Notes under the pieces: model-generated
Seen by the model: the letters and a program-made list of their open reading frames with translations, nothing else
Database searches by the model: none
Told to the model about the DNA's origin: nothing
Made by a program: the position numbers and the translations under genes
Assembly (NCBI GenBank): GCA_963745235.1
Contig: CAVUXE010000045.1
Location: 18,087 to 82,086, forward strand
Direction: 5' to 3'
DNA from: an uncultured Spirochaetota bacterium
GTDB taxonomy: Bacteria; Spirochaetota; Spirochaetia; SZUA-6; Fen-1364
DNA length: 64,000 nt
Part shown: positions 36,061 through 49,863 of the stretch, one piece after another
Layout of the letters: every line of letters begins with the position of its first letter
Numbering within the stretch: position 1 is the first letter of the stretch

Positions 36061-36399
36061 GGGTTCTTCCTCCTTAGAAGCTGGCTTTGAATCTTGTTTT
36101 TTCAAGACAGGAGCCGCGTGATTCCGGCGCGGATCCCGCTGCGAGGTGGCTGGTCTCTATAGTTCCGGCGCCCCTCCTTCCAGAGTTCGGGCACGTTCCC
36201 TGCCCTGGTCTCATTCACCTGCGCTGCACCGGCGTTCGACGAGCCCGCAGAGGATGCGGGAGTCTAGACGCTGGAGGCCAGGACGTCAAGATTGCGTTCT
36301 ACTCCGCCGCGATGGCCTTCTTTGGACAGCACATTACATTCTTAGAATAATCCCTTCGGGGGCCGAACGGAAAGGATTTTGTCGGGAAGGAGGCGAGCG

Positions 36400-37513
36400 A
36401 TGAGAGAAACCGCGGAACAGGTCATTACCGAAATCGAGATCAGGCGCTTTACCATCCCGTTGCGCGGGTCGGTTCAGATCTCCACCATGAACATGGAACG
36501 CGCGGAGAACCTGCTGGTAAAGCTTGTCAGCAGCGACGGTGTATGCGGCTGGGGAGAAGCATCACCCATGCGGTCCATCACGGGAGAAACGCAGGCGATT
36601 GACCTTGCGGCCGCGGCAGAGCTGAGGACGCTCCTCCTGGGCAGAAACCCGCTGGCCATCGGCGCCTTGTCAGCCTTGATGGCCCGGCATCTCCCTCACA
36701 ATACGACCATCCGAAGCGCGTTCGATATGGCGCTCTATGACATCGCCTCACGGTACGCCTCCATGCCCTTGTACCGGTTCCTTGGAGGGGAGCAACGCGA
36801 CCTGGAAACCGACATTACCATCTATATCGGTGATCCTGGCGAAGCAGGTGCGCGGGCTGAGCAGCTCCTCCGCGCCGGTTTCCGCGTCATCAAGGTCAAG
36901 GTAGGGCTCGATCGGGGAGACGACCTCAAGAGGGTTGATGTGATTCGCCGGGCAATCGGCAAGACGCCGAGACTGCGAATAGACGCGAACCAGGCGTGGG
37001 GCCGGACCGGCCGCCTTGAGCATGCTCCGTTCTCTGGAGGAGCATTCGATCGAGTTCTGCGAGCAGCCCTGCCTTGCCGCTGACCTCAGGACCCTGAAGT
37101 TCCTTTCCGCGAACAGCCCCATCCCGATCATGGCGGATGAATCCCTCTTCAGCCCGCAGGATGCCCTTGCACTGGATCGCGACGATGTCGTGCCCTATTT
37201 CAATATCAAACTGAGCAAATCCGGTGGACTCTACCAGGCCCAGCGGATTGCGCACATTGCTGCCGCGGGCGGACGGGTCTGCATGATAGGAGGCATGTCC
37301 GAGTCCCGCCTGGGAGTGACGGCGGCAGCGCATTTTGCCCTGGCCAACCCGATAGTCGAGTTCTGCGATCTCGATTCTTTCTATGAGCACCGGGACGATC
37401 CGATCCACGGAGGGTTGACCATTCGAGACGGGAAGGTAATTGTCCCCGACGAACCCGGGATAGGCGCCGTGCCGGATGAGTCATATCTTGCATCTCCCCC
37501 CGCCCGCGTATAG
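36400..37513 (+). CDS. Dipeptide (L-Ala-D/L-Glu) epimerase, enolase superfamily (frameshift ~37005)
   Basis: GWGEASP, KVKVG, RIDANQAW, EQP, MADES, NIKLSKSGG, DLDS. Confidence 0.88.
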
Positions 37514-37536
37514 GATCGCCTCCGGGCAGCTGAGTC

Positions 37537-40500
37537 ATGGCGTCCAACAAGAGGAAACACACGCGCGTCGATCACCGCGCAGCCGTGGAGCTCACGTCGG
37601 AGTCCTCCATATTTCCCGGTACGTCTGTCAACGTCAGCGTGAGCGGAATGCAGGTGGTGGTCGGACTGCCGGCGTCGTACGATTCGATCCAACGTATTGC
37701 ATTTCATATCCCTGGCTCTGATAAGCGCGTCGAGCTGCCCTGCCGGCTGATTCGCAACTCGGAGCACGACGGTGAAGGTGACCAGGTCCTGGGCCTGGAG
37801 TTTCTCTATGAAGCCGATGCCCAGCTCCTGCTCATAGAGAAGTTCATCCAGGACAGCCAGCCGGGCCGGGACGATGCGCGCCAGCTTCCTCGAACTTCCT
37901 GCCGCCTTGACGATGTCACGGTCGATACCCCCGCCTTTCACGTCCTCTCAATCGACAATCTCTCCACCGAGGGAATGCTCCTGAGCTTTCGCGGGAACCT
38001 GAAAGAAGGGGACGCGCTCGCCATGAGCGTCGGCATTCCCGGCGACGACCGCCGTCTTGGCCTCTCGGGAACGGTCGTCTACGTTGTCGAGAACGTGTTT
38101 CGCGGCTCCCTGACGGCCGGCGTTCGATTGTCGACCTTGAAAGAGACCGAGGAAAGCCGACTCAGGAATCTCATCGTCGCCTGCTCATCAGGGAGCGCAT
38201 TGCGCGGACTGCACGAGCATCTTCATTCCAAGGAGATGGAACCCGAGTCCCGAATTGTAGATCCGGTCCTGATCGGCGACATCCTGCATTCACTGAAAGT
38301 GGAATGCGTTCGATTGAGCACCCTGGTGGAAGGATCTTTCACCATCATCGAGCACGAGCTCGAAGGCGTTGACCTTGGATTGCAGCGGTTTGCAATCAGA
38401 GCAGGCAGCGAGCTTGCCACACGCAGTCTCGGACCGGGGGCGACGGCGTACTTCAGCTTCTATTGGAAGAAGGCCAGCTACTATTTCAAGGCGGTCGTGG
38501 GCTCCGCCCGTGATGATCTCCTCAGGTTTTCCTTTCCGAGCGTCATGTTCCGCTCGGACAAGAGGTCATACCAGAGAAAGCCGCTGGAGAGCGCCTCCCG
38601 CGCAAGGCTCGCAATACGCGGGCATACGTTCGAGGGGACACTGATCGATATCAGCCGCAGGGGGTTTCTCTGCGAGCTTCACCTTCCTGCCGAATCCCAG
38701 GCATTCTTCCAGAAAGGAAAAAGCCTTCACTACACCGTGGATGACAGGCTCGGGCTGGGAAGCGAAGGCCAGATCCGGCACCTGAGAGTGCTGCCAGCGC
38801 CGGAGGGCGTCGTTCTGCAAGTGGGCGTGGAAGCGGGAATCGGGAGAAACGCGGTGCGCTTCCGGCGCATCCCAGCCGAAAAATGGGAAGAAAGAACCTC
38901 TCGCAGCGGCGGCCTCCCGGGTTCTGAACGACGCATCGAGTCTCATTTCGTGCGGTTTCCCGACCGGGCAGGCCATGAGATCTGCGCCCTGCTCAATGCG
39001 ACCGAGCTGCGAGTCAAAGCCCCGGTCGTCATCATTCCTTCCGCGTACGGGAAAAAGAAGGAAGCATTCTCTCCCCTCGTGGCGACTCTGCTCGCGAGCT
39101 TCTGGAGCGAGGGGAGAAACATAGTCACGCTCCGCTATGATGGCGTCAATCGTCCGGGTGAAAGCCATCGGGACGAGATGAACCCGAAGCGCGGGTACGA
39201 AATGCTCACCTACAGGATCAGTCAGGGGCTCGGTGATCTCGAGGCGGCGTTGGATTTCGCGAACGATAACCCATACTTCGTTGCTGAAAAGGTGATCGTC
39301 ATCTCCTTCAGCATGGCCGCCATCGATGTGCGGCGCTTCCTGAGCCGGGATGAAGGCACGGCAATCGACTACTGGGTCAGCGTCATGGGGGTTCCTTGCG
39401 CGCAAACGACTCTGCGCAACATCCTCGGCGGAATCGATATCGTCAGCAACTATCGCCTGGGAATCCCCAACGGGATCATAGGGCTGTTGGGGCATCTGAT
39501 CGACATGGACATCACGGCCGCTGATTTGGTCGACAGAAGGTACGCCTTCCTGACCGACGCGCGCCTCGACATGTCTCGAATCGCAATTCCCGTGCTGTGG
39601 ATCTACGGCCTGTACGACAGATGGGTCGACATCGATGAGGTGAAGGACCTCATGTCGGTCAAGGCGCCGGGGAGACGCGAGATTGTCGAGATCCCCACCG
39701 GACACAACCTGCGCACCAGCGACGATGCCATCGAGACTTTCAAGCTGATCACGGCCTCCATCCATGAGGAGCTCTACGGCACGCGGATAGTGGCCCGAGA
39801 CCCATGGAAGGAGGAGATGATTCGCCTGCTCACCGAGGAGCGTGAGCGTCTCCAGAACAGGGTCGCTCCCCCTCTGACCGAATACTGGCGCGGGTACCTG
39901 CTCGGAAACGAAAGGAATCGCGTCGGCTACGACTTCTACAGGAACATTCCGGAGTTCACCGACTTCCTCAGAACGCAGGCAAAGTGCCTGGCGCTCGGGG
40001 AAGGGGAGATCATTGCCGACCTGGGTTGCGGGACCGGCATTTTCCTGGAGGCGCTGCTGGACTTCATCGCTGAGGCGGGAGCGCGAATATCGGCAAAGGA
40101 GATCATGGCCGTTGACCTCGTTCCGGATGCCCTGGACAAGGCGCGGCAAAAGTGTGAAGACGCTCTTGCCTTGAACCCCCGCCTGCGGAGCATTCACTTC
40201 CAGTACGCGCAAAAGAACCTGGAGCCCAATCGGCTCATTCCCGTTTCGCGCTTCATCGAGTCGAAGGTGCCTTCCCTCGATTCACTGAGGAACAAAATCG
40301 AGGGCCTTTCAGGAAAAGTGCTGGACAGTCTCATAGAACGCGCATCTCCCGACGTGTACGCCGTGATGCGCGGCGGGACGCCGGAGGGGGAGCCCTTTCT
40401 AAGGTTGAAATCGACGCTGCAAGCCGTCGAGCTTCAGACGGTCCTGGAGTTCAACAGGGCGGCCCGATACCTCTTGCACAGGCTCGAGAAGCATGACTTG

Positions 40501-41036
40501 AGACCTGACCGGATTTCGGAAAATGTTTCCCTGGAATGCCTGCGCACGAGCGATCTGGTGTTCGAGAAGCTCAACTTTGGAGACTATGATTCCAATCTCG
40601 GACTGGGCTTGCCCGGCGAACCATTTCACCAGGATCGTCGCAAGTCTCTTCATCTCGTATCTCCATAACCCTGACTACGCGCTTGCCGAATGCTACAGAA
40701 TGTTGAAACCAGGCGGCATCCTCCTTGTCTCCTCCATGAAGCCTGACAGCGACATCTCAATGATGTTCACCAACTATATCAGGAAGACGCTGACCCCGAA
40801 TTGCTCCGAGGATGACGGGATGGAAAATGGGGTGAGCGGCGCACGGGCCATGCTGAATGAGGCCGCCAGTCTCTTCGAGCTGGAAGAGGACGGCTTTTTC
40901 AGATTCTACACGCTCGAAGAGCTGAAAGACCTGCTGGCTGACGCTGGATTCGTTGAGGTCACCGGTGCTTTCTTCCATGGGAGACCCTCCTCAGGCTTGC
41001 ATCGCAGTTGCAAAAAAGACCTTGACAACATCTTAG
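37537..41036 (+). CDS. Multidomain protein: three PilZ domains + LuxD-like alpha/beta hydrolase + class I SAM methyltransferase (frameshifts ~40610 and ~40975)
   Basis: PilZ motifs RKHTR/NVSVSG, RQLPR/NLSTEG, RSYQR/DISRRG; hydrolase LRYDG, SFSMA, YDRWVD, TGHNL; MTase ADLGCGTG and ..SY..NP...L.E.YRMLKPGG in the next frame; corrected end SMGDPPQA..TTS* at 41036. Confidence 0.85.
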
Positions 41037-41049
41037 ATTACTCTACAAT
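41022..41049 (+). promoter_or_regulatory. Sigma70-type promoter upstream of the AMP-binding gene
   Basis: TTGACA (41022-41027) - 16 nt - TACAAT (41044-41049) in an AT-rich island 40 nt before ATG 41089. Confidence 0.65.
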
Positions 41050-41088
41050 AGCCACTATACCAAAAAACTCCACTAGGAATGAAATCAA

Positions 41089-42483
41089 ATGGTTGGAATA
41101 GGGAGAAAGATAGACGAAGCGTTGCATGACTGGGGCGATTCGCCTGCATTTCTTCAAGTCACCCAGGCGAACGGGGCCACTGTCATCCCCTCCATCGCGT
41201 TCTCGCAGAAGATCTTGGAGATTGCGAGCCAACTCCAGGCATGGGGGATCCGAGAAAAGTATCTCGTTCCGATTTTCCTGGGCAACTCGACAGATTTCAT
41301 TGCCATCTTTCTTGCCCTGATTCGCATCGGCGCGATCCCCGTCCTCGCCAAGCTGGACTACCGAACGCTGGAGCTCGACGAAGTATTCGCCAACGCGCAG
41401 CCGCAGGCGGTGATAGCTGAGAAAGAGCACCTCCGGCACCTGTCGCCATACCTCCACAATTCCATCGTTATCGTTCGATCAGGGGATCAGTTCCTGCTGG
41501 AACAGTCCGTCGAGGGCCTGACGCGCCGGGAGGACATTCCCGACGATATCGCGTCCATCAACTATACCTACCGCGGGTACGGGTATCCGCTGGGGGCCAT
41601 GATCTCCCATGACCAGTACCTTCACGGCGCCAGGGTACTGCAGGACGGGCTGCAGGGGTCTGCGGGAGAGAAGATGCTCATTATCCTGCCGATGGCGCAC
41701 ATTTTCACGATGGTAGGATGCGTCCTGGTCCCCTTGCTCTACCGGATGACCAGCGTCATTGTCGATACGTTGCACCCCCGACTTCTCTTTCAATACATTC
41801 GTGATTTCCGTATCGAGCACATCACATCCGTTCCGGAAGTTTACGAGCTGCTCTACCGGCTCCGCGACCCCGCGGTCGACCTTTCCTCACTGAAGGTCTT
41901 TGTGTCGGGAGGCAGCATCCTGACCCCTGACAGCTACGCGAATCTCAAGAGGGCCTTTTCGATCGACCTGCTTCATGGATACGGCCTGACGGAGTTCACT
42001 CCGGTCAGCCGCAACATGCGAGGTAAGTCCCGGTCGGGAACGGTCGGACCCCTGTGTGACCTCGTGGAGTGCCGAATCGACTCTTGCAGCCCCGGCGGGG
42101 CAGGAGAGATCCTGATCAGGACGCCGCATATGACGGGTACGTACTACCGCAGGCCGCGCGAGTCGGCCGAGGCGCACAACGATGGCTGGTTCAGGACGGG
42201 GGACATGGGCCGTATCGATGCGGGACACCTTGTATTCGTGAAAGAGTTGAAGAATACGCGCAAGATAAATGGAAATCTCGTGGACATCGAAGAGGTCACA
42301 CGCGCCCTCAAGCTGGACCCCGATGTGGCGGACGCACAGGTGGGTTGGGAGAGCAACTCCCTGTTCGCGCGGGTCGCGGTGAGCCAGCGCATCGACTTCG
42401 ATGAGAAGGCGAGACGTATGAAGTCCCTCCTCAGAGAGGTCATAGCGGAGTACAAGGTTCCGAAACGATTCAGCGTGCTTTGA
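41089..42483 (+). CDS. AMP-binding (acyl-CoA/acyl-ACP ligase-like) protein with atypical P-loop
   Basis: LPMAHIF, GYGLTE, GEIL, WFRTGDMG, YKVPK; P-loop reads NYTYRGYGYPLGA instead of YTSGTTGxPKG. Confidence 0.85.
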   Translation: MVGIGRKIDEALHDWGDSPAFLQVTQANGATVIPSIAFSQKILEIASQLQAWGIREKYLVPIFLGNSTDFIAIFLALIRIGAIPVLAKLDYRTLELDEVFANAQPQAVIAEKEHLRHLSPYLHNSIVIVRSGDQFLLEQSVEGLTRREDIPDDIASINYTYRGYGYPLGAMISHDQYLHGARVLQDGLQGSAGEKMLIILPMAHIFTMVGCVLVPLLYRMTSVIVDTLHPRLLFQYIRDFRIEHITSVPEVYELLYRLRDPAVDLSSLKVFVSGGSILTPDSYANLKRAFSIDLLHGYGLTEFTPVSRNMRGKSRSGTVGPLCDLVECRIDSCSPGGAGEILIRTPHMTGTYYRRPRESAEAHNDGWFRTGDMGRIDAGHLVFVKELKNTRKINGNLVDIEEVTRALKLDPDVADAQVGWESNSLFARVAVSQRIDFDEKARRMKSLLREVIAEYKVPKRFSVL

Positions 42484-42516
42484 CGAAAGCACCTGCCCTG
42501 AGGAGGGATACGGCAG

Positions 42517-42792
42517 ATGGGCAATGTGCAGGAAAACTGGAACCCGGATAAGTTCAAGAAGGAAATCAAGCAGATCGTTTCGAAAATTTCCCGAATCGAA
42601 GCAGCGGATCTGGAGGACCACCTTCTGATTCGCGAAGAGCTGGGAATCGACAGCCTGATGGCAATGGAGATTATCGCCACCTGCGAAAAGCTCCTGCGAC
42701 TGAAGATCGACGAAACACTGTTCGGTGAAATACAGACTGTCGGAGACTTTCTTGACCTTCTCGTAACGCTCTCAGGGCGGGCGGATGCGTGA
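42517..42792 (+). CDS. Acyl carrier protein
   Basis: 91 aa, acidic, ELGIDSLMAMEI phosphopantetheine site, IQTVGD; GAGGAGG RBS. Confidence 0.92.
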   Translation: MGNVQENWNPDKFKKEIKQIVSKISRIEAADLEDHLLIREELGIDSLMAMEIIATCEKLLRLKIDETLFGEIQTVGDFLDLLVTLSGRADA

Positions 42793-44104
42793 GTCCCGGA
42801 TCCGCATCCTTCTTGTCTCCCCCAAGGGGGAGTTTCTCTGTCGATCGCCCGAGTTCGGAGAGTTCATGCAGAGCTCACGCGACATGCGGACCATTCTGCA
42901 CTTCTGGAACGGAATTGGTGTCGCGCTACCGACGCTCGCCGCTCTGACACCGCCTTCGTTCGAAGTATTCATCGTTGACGAGAACATGGAGCCCATAGAC
43001 TTCAGTGCTCCGTGTGACATTGTGGGCGTTACCGCCATGACCCAGCAGGCCACACGAGCCTATGAAATCGCGGATGAGTTTCGAAGGAGAGGGCGTCACG
43101 TAGTTCTTGGAGGCATCCACGTGACTGCACTGCCCGGTGAAGCGATGCATCACGCGGACACGGTCATTGCGGGTGAGGCGGAAAACCTGTGGCCCAAGTT
43201 CCTGCAGGACTTTCAATCGGGAACGACACGTCGTATCTACGATCAGGAAGGGATCTCGCCCGTGGACATGACTCGCATCCCTGTGCCCCGCTACGAGTTG
43301 CTCGCGAAGTATCGCTACCCGGTTGTATACGTTCAAGCGACGCGCGGATGTCCGCACGATTGCGAGTTCTGTGTTGCGTCCAACATCTACGGGAAAAGAT
43401 ACAAGCACAAGACCGTTCAGCAAGTCGTGAACGAGGTCACGGAGGCGAAAAGGCTCTGGAAATACGCGCAAATCGGCTTCGCGGATGACAACATGTTCGT
43501 TGATCACGCGTACTCGACTGAGCTCGTCGAAAGGCTGAAGGAGCTGAAAATTGCCTGGTTCGCGATATGCGACATCGCCGTTGCCAAGGACGAAGCATTC
43601 CTCCGCCTGCTCCACGAGAGCGGGTGCCGCACTCTCCTCATTGGATTCGAGAGTGTGTCCAAGACAAGTCTCCACGGCATGAACAAAGACGCGTGGAAAC
43701 AAAAGCGATTCGATTCCTACCCGGAGTATATCCGGAGAATTCAGAGCCAGGGGATCGGCGTCTATGGATCCTTCATTCTCGGGCTGGACGATGACGGTCC
43801 TGAGTCGATCGATGCGACTGTTAATTTTGTCAACGATAATATCCTCTTGGGAACACAGATTACTCTTCTCACCCCCTTCCCGGGCAGCCGTCTGCGCTCC
43901 CGGCTCGAGCGGGAGCGGCGGATCGTTCATGATGATTGGAAGTGGTACACCGTTTGGAACTCAGTGATCCGACATCCCAGGTTCACGTCCGAGGAGCTCG
44001 AGAGGGGGCTTCTGCGAGCGTACGAAGGGGTGTATAATCCCGAGAGCAACGCCAGGCGTGCCCAGTATTTTCGAAAGGTGTGCGAAAATCTCGTCGAAGG
44101 GTAG
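42785..44104 (+). CDS. B12-binding domain radical SAM protein
   Basis: LPTLAALTP, VVLGGIH, GEAE cobalamin-binding region; TRGCPHDCEFC (CxxxCxxC); FADDN, IGFES, TPFPGS; start overlaps ACP stop. Confidence 0.93.
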   Translation: MRESRIRILLVSPKGEFLCRSPEFGEFMQSSRDMRTILHFWNGIGVALPTLAALTPPSFEVFIVDENMEPIDFSAPCDIVGVTAMTQQATRAYEIADEFRRRGRHVVLGGIHVTALPGEAMHHADTVIAGEAENLWPKFLQDFQSGTTRRIYDQEGISPVDMTRIPVPRYELLAKYRYPVVYVQATRGCPHDCEFCVASNIYGKRYKHKTVQQVVNEVTEAKRLWKYAQIGFADDNMFVDHAYSTELVERLKELKIAWFAICDIAVAKDEAFLRLLHESGCRTLLIGFESVSKTSLHGMNKDAWKQKRFDSYPEYIRRIQSQGIGVYGSFILGLDDDGPESIDATVNFVNDNILLGTQITLLTPFPGSRLRSRLERERRIVHDDWKWYTVWNSVIRHPRFTSEELERGLLRAYEGVYNPESNARRAQYFRKVCENLVEG

Positions 44105-44106
44105 CG

Positions 44107-46630
44107 ATGGGCTCTCGGAATCCCGCAATCTCAAGCGACCAACTCTCTTTGCGAGCCGGATTCGAGGCGGAAACCCGAGACAAGGCGGTCCGTGACACCC
44201 GTCTCACCGCGATCGTTGCCAGTATTCTCTTCCTTCTGTTCTGCATTCTCGACTATTTCGCGTATCCGCGTTCGTTCCTTCTTTTTTTCCTGATACGGTG
44301 CGTGGTCGTGCTTGGCAGCGGGCTGATCTTTCTCCTGATGTGGACCCAAGTTGGCACGAGGCATCCCCGGCTTTTTGCCATGCTGGAGTACATGTTGTGC
44401 GGCTCGGGAATCGTGCTCATGGTCCATTTGTCGGATGGGTATGCCAGCCCATACTACGCCGGGGTCAACCTGGTCCTGATGGCGTTCATTTCCATCATTC
44501 CCCTCGACGCAAAAAGAACAGCGCTGATATGCACCATTCTGTATGCAATTTACCTGATTCCGATCCTCGCCCTGCAGAGGATCATCCACTTCCACATTTT
44601 CCTGAACAACAACTTCTTTCTTGTTGCCACTATTGTTCTCGTAGTCCTCAGCTCGCGCCTTGCCACTCAGATGCGATTTCGGGAGTTCAGCGCGAGGTTC
44701 AATCTCGCCCGTGCGAATGAGGAACTGAAGAAGCTGGACATCCTGAAGTCGCAGTTCTTCGCGAACGTGAGTCACGAAGTCCGCACTCCACTCACTTCCA
44801 TCCTGTCTCCCATCCAGAGCCTGTACCAGGGGGACCTCGGACCACTGAATCCCGACCATCAGACGGCTGGTGGGCCAGGTCTATCGCAACTCGCTCAAGC
44901 TGCTCGACATGATCAACCAGATGCTTGACTTCTCGAAGTTCGAGGCCCGCAAGATGCAGCTTCACCTCAGGCACCTGGATATCGACGAGCTCGCCCGAGA
45001 CATCGTCACCACATTCCAGGACGTCACGGAACGAAAGGGATTGAAGCTTCGCTACGTGAGGGAAGGGGAGCTGCGGCCCGCCTATCTCGATGCGGAGAAA
45101 CTGGAGAGGATTCTCACCAACCTCATACGCAATGCCATCAAGTTCACGGAAAGTGGCTCCATCACGGTTCGCGCCGGCGCCAGCCTCAAGCAATCGATTG
45201 GGTCGAAGTCAGGGACACCGGCATCGGCATTCCCTCGCAGCACCTGGCGAACATCTTCAACAGATTCCAGCAGGTGGATTCCTCCAGCACGCGAAAATAT
45301 GAGGGCACGGGGCTTGGGCTTACTATCGTCAAAGGAGTCGGTGGATCTGATGAAGGGAAGCATCAAGGTCCAGAGCGAGGAGAGCACGGGGCACGGCATT
45401 CCGCGTCGAGCTGCCGACCAACCTGGACACAGCTGGTTCCCGACGCATTCATCGACAGGCGGAAGGATCAGCCGCGCCGGCAGACCGCGGACGATTTCGA
45501 CGGAGAAGAGAGAAGAAGACAGGCGCGCCGGGAATCGGACCAGTCGCGAGGATCAGCGTGGACGACCTCGCGCTCATAGAGAAAGAGACCATGGAGCGTC
45601 GGAGCGGGGAGAGGACGGCGTCTTCGCCCACGCCGGGCAACGGCAAGGCGGACCGTGTCCTTCTGGTGGAAGACAACATCGACCTCAGGGCATACATCAG
45701 CAAAATGCTTTCGCGTTTCGGACATGAAGTGGCGACGGCGATCGACGGGCTGGACGGCTGGGAGCACGCGCAGACAGACCTTCCCGACCTCGTGGTCTCG
45801 GACATCATGATGCCCCGCATGGACGGGTACGAGCTGGTCAGCCGCATCAAGTCAACCGACACGACCCGCCACATCCCGGTGATCCTGATCACGGCGAAGC
45901 CGGAGCTGGAATCGAAGCTGGAAGGGCTGCAGAAGGGCGCGGACGACTATCTGCCCAAGCCCATCAACATTCGAGAGCTGGACGCCCGCATCAGGAACCT
46001 CCTCGTGACGCGGAACCTCCAGCAGGCCCTGGCGCGGGAAGCAGAGCTGGGCGCGCGGATGGAAGAGCTCAGCATGAGCTTTTCGCAGTCCCTCGAGATC
46101 CGGGACTTCAATACGGCGGGGCATTCGCGTGACGTCCTGTACCTCGGCACCATCATCGCGGAAGGCATCGGCATCCCCGTGGACCGCATGCTGAAGGACT
46201 CGCTGCTCCTGCACGACATCGGCAAGCTGGGCATTCCGGACCGGATACTCCTCAAGGAATCACCGCTGAACGAGGAAGAGTGGAAGATCATGAAGACGCA
46301 TCCCGAGCTCGGGCGCGAGCCTGCTGGGGCACTTCGAATCCTACCGGGAGATCAGCGGGATCATACTTGCGCACCAGGAGCACCTCGAACGGTTCGGGCT
46401 ATCCCCGGGGGTTGAAGGGCGAAGAGATACCCCTGTTCGCGCGGATCATCGCCATCGCGGACGCCTACCACGCAATGACAAGCAACCGCCCTTATCGGAA
46501 CGCTCTTCCGGCGGGCAAGGCCGTGCAGGAGCTGACGCGCAACCGCGGCACACAGTTCGACGCCCCGCTCGTTGATGCCTTCATTCACGGCCTGATGCAG
46601 CGCAACATAATTTCAGCGGCTGATTTGTGA
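44107..46630 (+). CDS. Hybrid sensor: 6-TM input + HisKA/HATPase + REC + HD-GYP phosphodiesterase (several frameshifts)
   Basis: Six hydrophobic helices; [10 protein letters not shown] (H), [10 protein letters not shown] (N), DTGIGI (G1), GTGLGL (G2); LVEDN..SDIMMP..KP (REC); [28 protein letters not shown] (HD-GYP), read across successive overlapping frames. Confidence 0.88.
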
Positions 46631-48087: not shown

Positions 48088-49863
48088 ATGACATGCTCAT
48101 GTCTATTGAAGAGGGCAGATTTTCTCATCGACAAAGACGCTCTTGCAGCGATGACCGACGCACGCACGTTTCGCCGTGGCACAGACTACGCCCGTCTTGG
48201 GTGCGTCGGACCTATCCTCGAGCATGATGACAGCATCGAAGCTGCGGTGCAGGGCACGCGCAGGTACCGGGTGAAGCTCTGGCACGAGGAGAAAAGGCTG
48301 CGCTCCTCTTGCACCTGTCCTCTGGGTGAGGACGGTATTTTCTGCAAGCATTGTGTTGCCTTGGGGCTCGCGTGGATGGGTGAGGGTCCGGCGAAGGAGT
48401 CTGTGGAATCAGGGTCAGAAGTGGAGGCGACCATCGACATGAATGAAATCAAGAGCCACCTCCTCGCTCGCGACAAGTCGGACCTCGTTGATATTATCCT
48501 TTCGCAGGCAGTGGACGACGAGCGTCTCTTGCGGAAGCTTCTTGTTGATTCCGCGCGGACCAAAGGTCATAGCCACGAGACTTCTGTTCTGAGGAGCGTT
48601 ATCGATGACGCCGTTCGCAGTGACGGATACGTCGGATATCGTGAAGCCTATTCGTACGCACGAGGCGTCGAAGAGGCCGTGGATGGGGTTGATCATTTGT
48701 TGAAGTCAGGACAGCCAGTGGCCGCCATCGAGCTTGCGGAGTACGCTTTGAAGGCAGTCGAGGGGCAGATGGAGTCGGTCGATGATTCGGACGGCTCAAT
48801 GCAGCCAATTCTCGATAGGCTGCAGGAAATCCACCACAATGCCTGTGTGAAGGCCAGACCCGATAAGAAGGATCTGGCGCGCCGCCTTTTTGCTTGGGAG
48901 CTCAATTCAGACTGGGAGGTCTTTTTGGGAGCCGTCTCAACGTACAAAGGCGTGCTCGGATCGGAAGGTTTGAGCGTCTATCGTTCTCTCGCTGAAACCG
49001 AGTGGTCAAAGGTCAAGCAGTTGGCACCGGGCCAACACGATGACACAAGGTTCGTCAGCCGGTTTCGAATCACCCACATGATGGAAATGCTGGCCCGTGA
49101 AACTGGCGACATCGAGCGACTCGTTGCTGTAAAGTCCCGTGACCTCTCAATTGCCTACTGTTTTCTGGAGATCGCAGAGGAATACAAGAAGGCTGGGAAA
49201 GCGGACCTCGCGATACAGTGGGCAGAACGAGGAGTACACGCTTTTTCGGAACGGACAGACTCACGGCTACGGGAGTTTCTGGCTGAAGAATACCACCAGC
49301 TGACGCGCCACGATGATGCGATGGCGCTCATGTGGAAAGAGTTCGTGGAATCTCCCGGCCTCGACGGATACCAACAGCTCAAGTCCCACGCTGACCAGTT
49401 CAACGCCTGGTCGGAGTGGCGCGCGAAGGCTTTCGATCATTTGCGCACGGTCCTTGCCGCAAGAAAGGCCACGGCGAAAAAGACCAGATGGGCGTGGGAG
49501 TCACAGGCGGACAGCTCAACAATCGTCAGGATTCTCCTTTGGGAGAAGGACGACGAAGCTGCCTGGCGAGAAGCGCAAGATGGCGGCTGTTCAGAAGACC
49601 TGTGGCTGGAGCTTGCCCAGCGGCGGGAAAAGTCCCATCCGCAGGACGCTCTTCCTATCTACCAGCGGAGGCTCGCTCCGGTGCTGGACAGGAAGAATAT
49701 CGAGGCCTATCGCGAGGCCGTTCGAACGCTTCAGCTTATCCGGCGCCTGATGAAAGCGCTTGGCAGGGATGCCGATTTCACAGCCTATCTGGAAGAAGTC
49801 CGTTCTGCACACAAGCCGAAACGCAATTTCATAAAGCTTCTCGATCAGGTGAGGTGGCGCTGA
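48088..49863 (+). CDS. SWIM zinc finger protein with helical/TPR-like C-terminus (DUF6880-like)
   Basis: FRRG.DY, VQGT..YRV, CTCP....FCKHCVA SWIM motif, VDDSDG, HKPKRNFIKLL terminus. Confidence 0.88.
   Translation: MTCSCLLKRADFLIDKDALAAMTDARTFRRGTDYARLGCVGPILEHDDSIEAAVQGTRRYRVKLWHEEKRLRSSCTCPLGEDGIFCKHCVALGLAWMGEGPAKESVESGSEVEATIDMNEIKSHLLARDKSDLVDIILSQAVDDERLLRKLLVDSARTKGHSHETSVLRSVIDDAVRSDGYVGYREAYSYARGVEEAVDGVDHLLKSGQPVAAIELAEYALKAVEGQMESVDDSDGSMQPILDRLQEIHHNACVKARPDKKDLARRLFAWELNSDWEVFLGAVSTYKGVLGSEGLSVYRSLAETEWSKVKQLAPGQHDDTRFVSRFRITHMMEMLARETGDIERLVAVKSRDLSIAYCFLEIAEEYKKAGKADLAIQWAERGVHAFSERTDSRLREFLAEEYHQLTRHDDAMALMWKEFVESPGLDGYQQLKSHADQFNAWSEWRAKAFDHLRTVLAARKATAKKTRWAWESQADSSTIVRILLWEKDDEAAWREAQDGGCSEDLWLELAQRREKSHPQDALPIYQRRLAPVLDRKNIEAYREAVRTLQLIRRLMKALGRDADFTAYLEEVRSAHKPKRNFIKLLDQVRWR

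Follow-up and report, generated by a model that had tools for sequence, protein, structure and literature searches.

A five-gene cluster in an uncultured spirochaete

We examined a 64,000-nucleotide stretch of DNA (hereafter, the window) from a metagenome-assembled genome (MAG) of an uncultured Spirochaetota bacterium from soil (GenBank assembly GCA_963745235.1, contig CAVUXE010000045.1, positions 18,087 to 82,086), which carries five plus-strand genes lying head to tail at 37537-46630. An earlier note on this DNA had proposed that these co-oriented genes form a signal synthesis and sensing system under feedback control by cyclic di-GMP (c-di-GMP); all five are indeed present there, and a Pfam scan confirmed each domain. 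In order, their products are a fusion of three PilZ domains, a hydrolase and a methyltransferase (gene 1), an acyl-AMP ligase, an acyl carrier protein (ACP), a B12-binding radical S-adenosylmethionine (SAM) enzyme, and a kinase with six transmembrane (TM) segments joined to receiver (REC) and HD-GYP domains.

Gene 1 (37537-41036) is frame-broken in the assembly. Its domain borders are approximate: PilZ-1 at ~37546-37848, PilZ-2 at ~37870-38211, a PilZN-like region with PilZ-3 at ~38224-38886, a LuxD-like alpha/beta hydrolase at ~38989-39846, and a class I SAM methyltransferase with an insert of ~150 aa at ~39904-41036. The earlier layout of this gene had the domains right, but a second frameshift near 40955-40965 puts the true stop at ~41034-41036, and after frame repair gene 1 and the ligase gene are separated by a gap of ~52 nt with no overlap. 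The ligase, a member of the ANL superfamily, is intact (41089-42483, 464 aa; Pfam AMP-binding, 2.1e-50) and is followed by a dedicated ACP of 91 aa with a DSL serine (42517-42792; Pfam PP-binding, 6.6e-10) and by an intact, 439-aa B12-binding radical SAM enzyme with the motif CPHDCEFC (42785-44104; Pfam Radical_SAM and B12-binding). As claimed, the ACP and radical SAM genes overlap, by 8 nt (42785 versus 42792), and 2 nt lie between the radical SAM stop (44104) and the ATG of the kinase gene (44107). The latter encodes a hybrid sensor kinase (44107-46630, also frame-broken in the assembly) made up of a six-TM, MASE8-like input (~44107-44670, from hydropathy and a structural match), a HisKA-HATPase region (~44720-45400; Pfam HisKA and HATPase_c), a REC domain (~45655-46000; Pfam Response_reg, 1e-27) and an HD-GYP domain (~46050-46630; Pfam HD/HD_5, 7.7e-19).

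Two candidate promoters, both on the plus strand, accompany these genes. Upstream of gene 1, a promoter-like element at 37488-37516 (CTTGCA, ~16 nt, TATAGG; a consensus-type match only) is kept in the window and in the related loci L002 and L042 despite differing upstream genes, and conservation begins at this element. A putative internal sigma-70-like promoter (41022-41049; TTGACA-16-TACAAT) matches 11 of 12 consensus positions in the gap between gene 1 and the ligase gene, and recurs in L001, L002 and L042 with TTGACA invariant and TAYAAT kept. No Rfam family, and thus no riboswitch, scored over threshold within 30000-52000. A look for expression found no RNA run with the cluster among the 13 runs listed.

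Frameshifts in the window copy are assembly errors

Gene 1 and the kinase gene together contain at least ten frame breaks within the 9-kb cluster. At least two lie in gene 1, near 40607-40632 and at the second site given above. In the kinase gene, comparison with the intact L001 and L002 copies revealed eight frame-changing insertions of 1-2 nt (44862, 45183, 45334, 45385, 45429, 45542, 46314 and 46386) and a compensating 2+1 pair at 45604/45638, with Pfam matches spread across four frame pieces from 44080 to 46630. Such a number of breaks could point to a dead locus, the window copy being a decaying pseudogene cluster. Against this, the kinase breaks are all 1-2 nt insertions across which the REC-HD protein retains 93-97% amino acid identity to its relatives, and rpoB of the same MAG (104 contigs, 85.7% complete) is likewise split into three frame pieces (G000:C73:99187-102555). 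Furthermore, independent short-read Logan contigs that match the window at 90-100%, drawn from four of four soil metagenome runs in three studies, contain no extra bases wherever the checked sites (45330, 45432, 45549/45552, 46310/46314 and 46388) were covered. We therefore conclude that the frameshifts are assembly errors and not decay, and read both genes through their orthologs. The pseudogene reading, which we consider hardly credible, was rejected. The enolase-superfamily gene upstream of the cluster (36379-37513) is split in the same way, and 1-2 nt insertion errors are frequent enough that gene calls anywhere in this MAG need frame repair.

The cluster is a conserved, self-contained operon

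Conservation was assessed in two samples. In the first, anchored on the radical SAM enzyme and limited to one genome per species, the best 80 of 201 relatives yielded 79 distinct loci; every part of the cluster was found in 26 of these, 24 of them in the window's order. Ten further loci were partial, nine being cut by a contig end (L010, L013, L015, L019, L021, L022, L032, L033 and L040) and the tenth, L031, following a reading frame that resembles an insertion sequence (IS). The second sample was anchored on gene 1 and thereby blind to the radical SAM enzyme. It comprised 21 loci from 21 genomes, including nine new places, and in all 21 gene 1, the ligase, the ACP and the kinase occur together and in the same order. 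Genes flanking the operon are unconserved in these loci. The synteny on which the earlier note had staked its proposal thus holds, and the operon is a conserved self-contained unit; with dozens of species sharing the arrangement between unrelated flanks, it is more than chance.

The distribution of the operon is patchy. Gene 1 was found in 8 of 401 genomes sampled across the phylum, 25 of 92 from the order and, the window's own genome aside, 7 of 20 from the genus, as well as in 17 of 21 genomes of one sister family and 0 of 24 of another, a spread that fits an accessory trait.

In the window itself, the flanks hold an enolase-superfamily gene, a RibD_C gene, a DUF6880 gene and ABC-3 transporters. 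None is conserved with the cluster, on which ground a wider operon was rejected; the DUF6880 protein (591 aa, 48088-49863) lies downstream. Horizontal transfer was also considered from base composition and set aside, as the G+C content of the cluster (57.9%, versus 61.2% for the genome) is equalled or undercut in 12% of genome windows.

Gene 1 combines PilZ domains with a putative acyl release enzyme

Gene 1 reads through unbroken in 27 of 27 relatives. Pfam PilZ matches three stretches of it (E = 8.6e-24), while the class I methyltransferase match is split. Across 24 orthologs (39-51% identity), RxxxR and (D/N)xSxxG are kept in all three PilZ domains, and conservation of the corresponding residues (R6/R10/S34/G37, R115/R119/N141/S143/G146 and R343/R347/S378/G381) is at least 90%, up to full invariance. 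These retained motifs support the prediction that all three domains bind c-di-GMP, and bear out the triple PilZ architecture that had been claimed.

In the same orthologs, the hydrolase residues Ser597, Asp699 and His728 and the methyltransferase motif DxGCGTG are invariant. The window copy of the hydrolase gave no Pfam match, and the intact ortholog P0001 passes Acyl_transf_2/LuxD (PF02273; 21.6 versus a 20.3-bit cut-off). A structural model of the hydrolase and methyltransferase (predicted local distance difference test score, pLDDT, 87.2; predicted template-modelling score, pTM, 0.83) retrieved LuxD (1tht), the myristoyl-ACP thioesterase/acyltransferase of the Vibrio harveyi lux fatty-acid reductase, as its top solved match by Foldseek (E = 1.4e-14, TM-score 0.81), and again by an exhaustive VIA search (Z = 28.0; root-mean-square deviation, rmsd, 2.8 over 277 aligned of 293 residues), in which the next hydrolase scored three units lower. 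Profile, fold and Ser-Asp-His triad therefore place the domain in the LuxD/Acyl_transf_2 family; the spacing of the triad is like that of LuxD. As the NCBIfam LuxD equivalog cut-off was missed (20 versus 420 bits), the hydrolase is a distant relative and not a LuxD orthologue. It also differs from LuxD in sharing only 17% identity, in being part of a fusion with PilZ domains and a methyltransferase, and in having no LuxC or LuxE partners. The agreement of Pfam, Foldseek and VIA supports the earlier suggestion of a hydrolase-methyltransferase fusion as the release enzyme, putatively a LuxD-type acyl-ACP hydrolase joined to a SAM methyltransferase.

This LuxD-methyltransferase (LuxD-MT) core is represented by 502 sequences at E ≤ 1e-30 among 1.84 billion proteins, and ten sampled members contain zero to one Pfam-detected PilZ domain each. 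Public names of gene 1 are generic ('PilZ domain-containing protein', 'methyltransferase').

A ligase, a specialised carrier and a mobile radical SAM enzyme

The ligase has the AMP-binding core of the ANL superfamily. Among NCBIfam models, those for long-chain fatty-acid-CoA ligases score best, all under cut-off. All 18 ligase relatives inspected stop 2-19 aa after YK(I/V)P, most within ~5 aa, and this short C-terminus (window 42460-42483) is seen in family members from every phylum sampled. The ACP falls below all AcpP cut-offs and is, by this measure of sequence, a specialised carrier, which the ligase presumably loads.

An invariant CPHDCEFC (CxxxCxxC) and the Pfam B12-binding and Radical_SAM domains place the fourth gene product among the class B radical SAM enzymes. 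No NCBIfam equivalog was reached, the best being HpnJ (115 bits versus a 577-bit cut-off). Its model (pLDDT 91.9) has the class B fold, with AprD4, MgmA, TsrM, OxsB, CysS and TokK as nearest neighbours; CysS and TokK were solved with pantetheinylated substrates. Because these neighbours include methylases and non-methylases, the reaction cannot be named. Sister branches of the enzyme lie in clusters resembling fatty-acid synthase loci, with genes for beta-ketoacyl-ACP synthases, FabA-like proteins, an ACP and an acyl-ACP thioesterase, which by analogy speaks for an ACP-bound fatty chain being the probable substrate.

Within the gene-1-anchored sample, the position of the radical SAM gene varies. 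It is full-length between the ACP and kinase genes in 12 of 21 loci, between the ligase and ACP genes in two, between gene 1 and the ligase gene in one, inverted in place in one, and upstream of gene 1 and divergent in two. Of the remainder, L169 has no radical SAM gene (L169:5726-6755), L168 a 31-residue remnant (L168:6323-6415) and L174 the first 191 residues (L174:6170-6763), with gene 1, ligase, ACP and kinase all retained in these three loci without a working radical SAM enzyme. The gene thus switches place and strand in an otherwise fixed operon (L042:10001-11326 = L167:6713-8038; L035; L170; L180), having been replaced in L042 by an inverted, 42%-identical homolog, and apparently acts as a cassette that can be swapped.

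L042 is a mosaic when compared to L002: the hydrolase and REC-HD parts are 94-96% identical, whereas the ACP (64%), the radical SAM enzyme (42%) and the TM part of the sensor (61%) diverge. The pattern may resemble a co-diverging signal and receptor, being one case for which adjacency alone could account. Across loci, the identity matrices separate into one block of hydrolase-MT-ligase (r 0.79-0.87) and another of ACP-rSAM-sensor-REC/HD (r 0.45-0.83; rSAM, radical SAM enzyme). Because these blocks coincide with the left and right operon halves, the covariation is explained by linkage, and it was rejected as evidence of co-adaptation.

The sensor is a hybrid kinase ending in an HD-GYP domain

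As the earlier note had read them, kinase, REC and HD-GYP belong to one protein, which is intact in 30 of 31 relatives. In the alignment of the 30 single-frame orthologs, the kinase boxes (H, N, G1, F and G2) are conserved, as is the REC aspartate, which identifies a hybrid kinase. A hydropathy scan found six hydrophobic segments in residues 33-182. The MASE8 profile (PF20968) matches this input with E = 0.048 and 14.3 bits (cut-off 26.2), and an Atlas structural match of the kinase fell in a cluster that is 93% MASE8 (TM-score 0.88). In the 30 orthologs the HD-GYP domain retains HD, GYP and RxY[K/R], the last as RPYRK/R. With 19 GGDEF matches over cut-off in its genome, the host evidently makes c-di-GMP.

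A predicted acyl pathway under c-di-GMP control

Taken together, this analysis suggests a self-contained accessory operon that makes a small, tailored fatty-acyl derivative, the last step of which would be controlled through c-di-GMP by the operon's own membrane sensor; we give this reading an even chance of being right. The ligase would adenylate a fatty acid and load it onto the dedicated ACP, where the B12-radical SAM enzyme would modify the bound chain, C-methylation being the commonest reaction in the class and other chemistry possible. The LuxD-like domain of gene 1 would then remove the acyl group from the ACP, and the fused SAM methyltransferase would methylate the released acyl, most simply to a fatty-acid methyl ester. 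The three PilZ domains of gene 1 may gate release and methylation by the level of c-di-GMP. On the sensory side, the six-TM MASE8-like kinase would phosphorylate its own REC domain and so set HD-GYP activity or partner binding, and the state of the HD-GYP domain would determine the local c-di-GMP perceived by the PilZ domains of gene 1. The product is most likely a released or envelope-associated signal-type lipid, and not a bulk membrane lipid.

Several observations weigh against this reading. Neither an exporter nor a DNA-binding output lies within the operon. The HD-GYP motif is AHQEH in the window (46370-46400) and in 24 of 30 orthologs, and AHHEH in the other six; the canonical motif is HHExh(D/N)GxGYP with the HD dyad, both metal-binding histidines and RxY[K/R], according to a survey (bioRxiv 10.1101/2021.11.05.467447). 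With Gln standing in for the second histidine of the HHE metal-binding motif in the window and these 24 orthologs, phosphodiesterase activity cannot be taken for granted, and an HD-GYP domain of this kind may have weak activity or work through contacts with proteins. In both sequence profile and fold, only generic small-molecule enzymes of class I come close to the methyltransferase, so carboxyl methylation is a guess. The ligase ends ~5 aa past YKVPK, while solved relatives extend 25-46 aa more, and the stretch absent from its C-terminus is one that we take to hold the A10 lysine, the last conserved ANL motif. In 3 of 21 loci the radical SAM gene is missing altogether, reduced to a remnant or truncated, and among the other 18 it occupies five different positions, which makes it a movable and dispensable tailoring step; this weakens the earlier idea that the acyl chain is radically modified. 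All carriers found are MAGs or metagenome contigs, except for WP_457552436.1 (Desulfobacula sp., RefSeq, origin not stated). Sensor kinases neighbour membrane-homeostasis enzymes too, as in DesK/Des. What the sequences show directly is which domains are present, that their catalytic and binding motifs are intact, and that the gene set is conserved and recurs in other phyla with parts exchanged; the reactions, the direction of the c-di-GMP effect and the sensor input are all inferred.

Variants in other phyla exchange the release enzyme

A quick maximum-likelihood tree of 77 radical SAM relatives placed the window enzyme in a clade of 41 rows (SH-aLRT 98). A histidine kinase gene lies within 7 kb of the radical SAM gene in 36 of the 40 other loci of this clade and 3 of 3 of a second clade, compared to 2 of the 33 remaining relatives; three of the four window-clade loci without a kinase have little flank, at most 2.0 kb downstream. 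Ligase-ACP-B12-rSAM cassettes were seen in at least eight phyla. Outside the spirochaetes, the ligase, ACP and radical SAM genes beside a membrane kinase are retained and the release enzyme is exchanged.

A thioester reductase takes this place in three loci: L027 (Planctomycetia), with FadL, ACP, ligase, reductase, radical SAM enzyme, 7TM-GAF kinase and REC-HD-GYP; L030 (Omnitrophota), which has the same composition up to the contig end; and L037 (Pseudomonadota), with FadL, a PilZ-ACP fusion, reductase, ligase, radical SAM enzyme and 7TM-GAF hybrid kinase. In L038 (Polyangiaceae), an AAR-like acyl-ACP reductase accompanies ligase, radical SAM enzyme and hybrid kinase. An alpha-oxoamine synthase is found in L075 (KSB1: ligase, radical SAM enzyme, ACP, synthase, PAS hybrid kinase) and L088 (a metagenome: ligase, radical SAM enzyme, synthase, 7TM-GAF kinase, two REC proteins, GAF-HD-GYP). 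The L075 synthase matches a BioF/SPT-like subfamily best (267 bits) and the CqsA-type NCBIfam model weakly (65 versus a 428-bit cut-off). L093, also from a metagenome, combines a ketosynthase, three radical SAM enzymes, an ICMT-type methyltransferase, a 7TM kinase and PilZ. In Desulfobacula (L031 / G492), ACP, radical SAM enzyme, hybrid kinase and REC-HD-GYP are on L031, and gene 1 and the ligase gene are at the end of another contig.

Parts related to c-di-GMP recur in these variants as the PilZ-ACP fusion, as REC-HD-GYP or GAF-HD-GYP genes (L027, L031 and L088) and as a stand-alone PilZ (L093), a pattern supporting the view that the link between c-di-GMP and an acyl pathway arose independently elsewhere. 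The PilZ-ACP fusion family comprises 38 clusters (L037:1877-2665; P0125, P0158). In one relative the same PilZ domain is joined to a class I methyltransferase, and in the PilZ domain of P0125 DIGTGG replaces DxSxxG.

Two loci, L028 (L028:7023-18076) and L093 (L093:4086-14137), carry two or three B12-radical SAM genes beside a 7TM-GAF kinase gene, with PilZ also present in L093; their partner genes are amine-oxidase/desaturase-like, or encode a ketosynthase and an ICMT-type membrane methyltransferase. On L031, an IS256-like reading frame (L031:4-1881, minus strand; E = 4e-10) lies directly upstream of the ACP gene, and the Desulfobacula cluster may be interrupted, or the assembly broken at a repeat. 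A rule that the sensor type follows the release enzyme was dropped, as the alpha-oxoamine synthase occurs with a PAS kinase in L075 and with a 7TM-GAF kinase in L088.

FadL/TodX hydrophobic-uptake channels begin the L027, L030 and L037 variants, and the pathway starts with a ligase acting on a free acid, not with a ketosynthase. Both features would suit a system that takes up and processes a hydrophobic acid from outside the cell. The kinase would then detect a fatty or aromatic acid as it enters, and the ligase, ACP and radical SAM enzyme would activate and convert it, whether to detoxify it, to scavenge it or to convert a foreign signal; free fatty acids are recycled by ligases of the RpfB type (PMC4504480). 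We find this account improbable: the spirochaete version is without FadL or any other transporter, no beta-oxidation genes are linked, and methylation or reduction after release would give more hydrophobic products, not catabolic intermediates.

The alpha-oxoamine synthase variants bear on a second explanation, the remodelling of an envelope lipid. Here the kinase would sense a physical or chemical state of the membrane and not the product, c-di-GMP acting through PilZ would tune a modified acyl chain destined for an envelope lipid, and the LuxD-like domain would serve as an acyltransferase. The ligase, ACP and synthase of L075 and L088 mirror the ACS-ACP-SPT module of bacterial sphingolipid synthesis (PMC9386255). 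The LuxD family, by its name, includes acyltransferases as well as thioesterases, the sister radical SAM branches lie in lipid-biosynthesis clusters, and some weak matches of the gene 1 methyltransferase are to phospholipid N-methyltransferases and a cyclopropane synthase. On the other hand, the operon is patchy even within the genus (7 of 20), its radical SAM gene has been lost repeatedly, and no glycerol-3-phosphate or lyso-lipid acyltransferase or head-group genes are part of it. Thioester reductases, which yield free aldehydes or alcohols, also occur among the release enzymes. We therefore regard envelope remodelling as unlikely, if less so than the uptake of an exogenous acid, and retain the c-di-GMP-controlled synthesis of a signal-type lipid as the best explanation.

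Relation to known systems and a possible closed signalling loop

The cassette is real, widespread and undescribed in the literature searched. The earlier note had presented the system as a candidate undescribed one, and we found no paper on the cluster in the full-text literature searched, a scope that leaves subscription journals and supplements outside.

Its sensory half is like the diffusible signal factor (DSF)/Rpf system of Xanthomonas, in which an acyl-ACP-derived fatty product, a nearby multi-TM hybrid kinase and a REC-HD-GYP output come together (PMC4504480). Only this half is Rpf-like, and unlike RpfC/RpfG, kinase and REC-HD-GYP are here a single polypeptide. The synthase side has PilZ receptors, a dedicated ACP and a B12-radical SAM enzyme in place of RpfF: no crotonase/enoyl-CoA hydratase domain is present in any of the five genes, in keeping with the absence of RpfF noted before, and the operon is not a DSF/Rpf system. 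A Pfam search for a LuxI synthase matched neither this genome nor any control genome and so does not speak to its absence. The analogy that the earlier note drew with RpfB is weakened, since in the same source RpfB acts in the recycling of fatty acids to CoA and not in signal synthesis (PMC4504480), whereas the ligase here adjoins its own ACP. Overall, the interpretation in that note is partly supported: the conserved unit, the hydrolase-methyltransferase release enzyme, the PilZ motifs and the one-protein kinase have stood, while its radical SAM step proved dispensable, its phosphodiesterase activity is in doubt and its RpfB analogy is weakened.

Compared by architecture alone, the operon is also like the Phc system of Ralstonia, where the SAM methyltransferase PhcB makes a fatty-acid methyl ester signal and PhcS is the membrane kinase. 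The Phc output is the transcription factor PhcA, and to our knowledge Phc has no c-di-GMP parts, no LuxD-like domain and no ligase, ACP or radical SAM enzyme. The alpha-oxoamine synthases of L075 and L088 recall CqsA/CqsS and LqsA/LqsS, none being encoded in the window; the CqsS and LqsS receptors are membrane sensor kinases with six TM helices.

The fusion of PilZ to a biosynthetic enzyme under post-translational c-di-GMP control is like BcsA, whose PilZ domain packs on the catalytic domain (bioRxiv 10.1101/814665). Known examples of this kind are polysaccharide synthases, whereas gene 1 is a predicted acyl-ACP enzyme with three PilZ domains, and the accessible text of two PilZ surveys mentions no such fusion. 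In its class B fold and ACP association, the radical SAM enzyme is like the lipid-modifying B12 enzymes (ladderane-type, HpnJ/HpnP/HpnR, GrsA/B). The lipid-modifying radical SAM enzymes covered by a 2026 review are, in the sections available, Tes, Mss, Gms, GrsA/B, Gmm, Cds, HpnH/J/P/R, Jaw5 and ladderane enzymes, and none of the cases described there combines a ligase, a dedicated ACP, a sensor kinase and c-di-GMP parts (PMC13459092). Nor is the cassette mentioned in the available portion of an HD-GYP survey.

These comparisons raise a stronger version of the best explanation, which is not an exclusive alternative to it: a closed autoinducer loop, in which the released acyl methyl ester would diffuse out of the cell and bind the six-TM input of the adjacent kinase, whose HD-GYP domain would lower c-di-GMP and so feed back on the PilZ-gated synthase. 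This would be signalling of the quorum-sensing type with new synthase chemistry. A lipid-signal synthase beside a membrane kinase is the rule in known systems, rpfF/rpfC with the HD-GYP protein RpfG being one case (PMC4504480) and phcB/phcS a second. Across phyla, the release types found here (methyl-ester, aldehyde/alcohol and alpha-oxoamine-synthase) match known signal chemotypes and are consistent with such a loop. So are the L002/L042 mosaic, in which tailoring enzyme and sensor input diverge together, and the FadL-type outer-membrane channels of L027, L030 and L037. Against the loop, the accessible parts of the literature searched name no ligand for MASE8-type inputs, and the covariation of ACP, radical SAM enzyme and sensor (r 0.65-0.78) is explicable by operon adjacency. 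Moreover, the L169 cluster keeps an ordinary sensor without a radical SAM enzyme, sensor type is not one-to-one with release enzyme (L075 with its PAS kinase, L088 with its 7TM-GAF kinase), and the HQE variant casts doubt on phosphodiesterase activity. A closed signalling loop is plausible, and we put it forward tentatively, with less confidence than the c-di-GMP-controlled pathway of which it is an extension.

Implications for lipid-linked signalling

We read the cassette as a lipid-linked sensor system with c-di-GMP output, one that has a real chance of representing a new signalling class. In its fullest form, a possibility that we rate well short of even, ligase-ACP-B12-rSAM cassettes beside membrane sensor kinases would constitute a new lipid-type class of cell-cell signalling, in which the radical SAM enzyme and an exchangeable release enzyme set the 'dialect' of the signal, the kinase reads it, and c-di-GMP provides output and feedback through HD-GYP and PilZ. 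If this is true, the swaps and losses of the radical SAM gene among close relatives would be changes of dialect. The natural variants, with or without the radical SAM enzyme and with differing release enzymes, are ready comparisons for the sensor input.

If the reading is right, c-di-GMP would directly gate a lipid or small-molecule synthase, where the well-studied PilZ-gated enzymes are polysaccharide synthases. It would open up the LuxD-MT family, which has been without a functional name, and for the first time assign a function both to a MASE8-type sensor and to a clade of B12-radical SAM enzymes that is large but has no name. The organisms that carry the operon are uncultured bacteria of soil, peat and sediment, in which chemical communication is poorly known.

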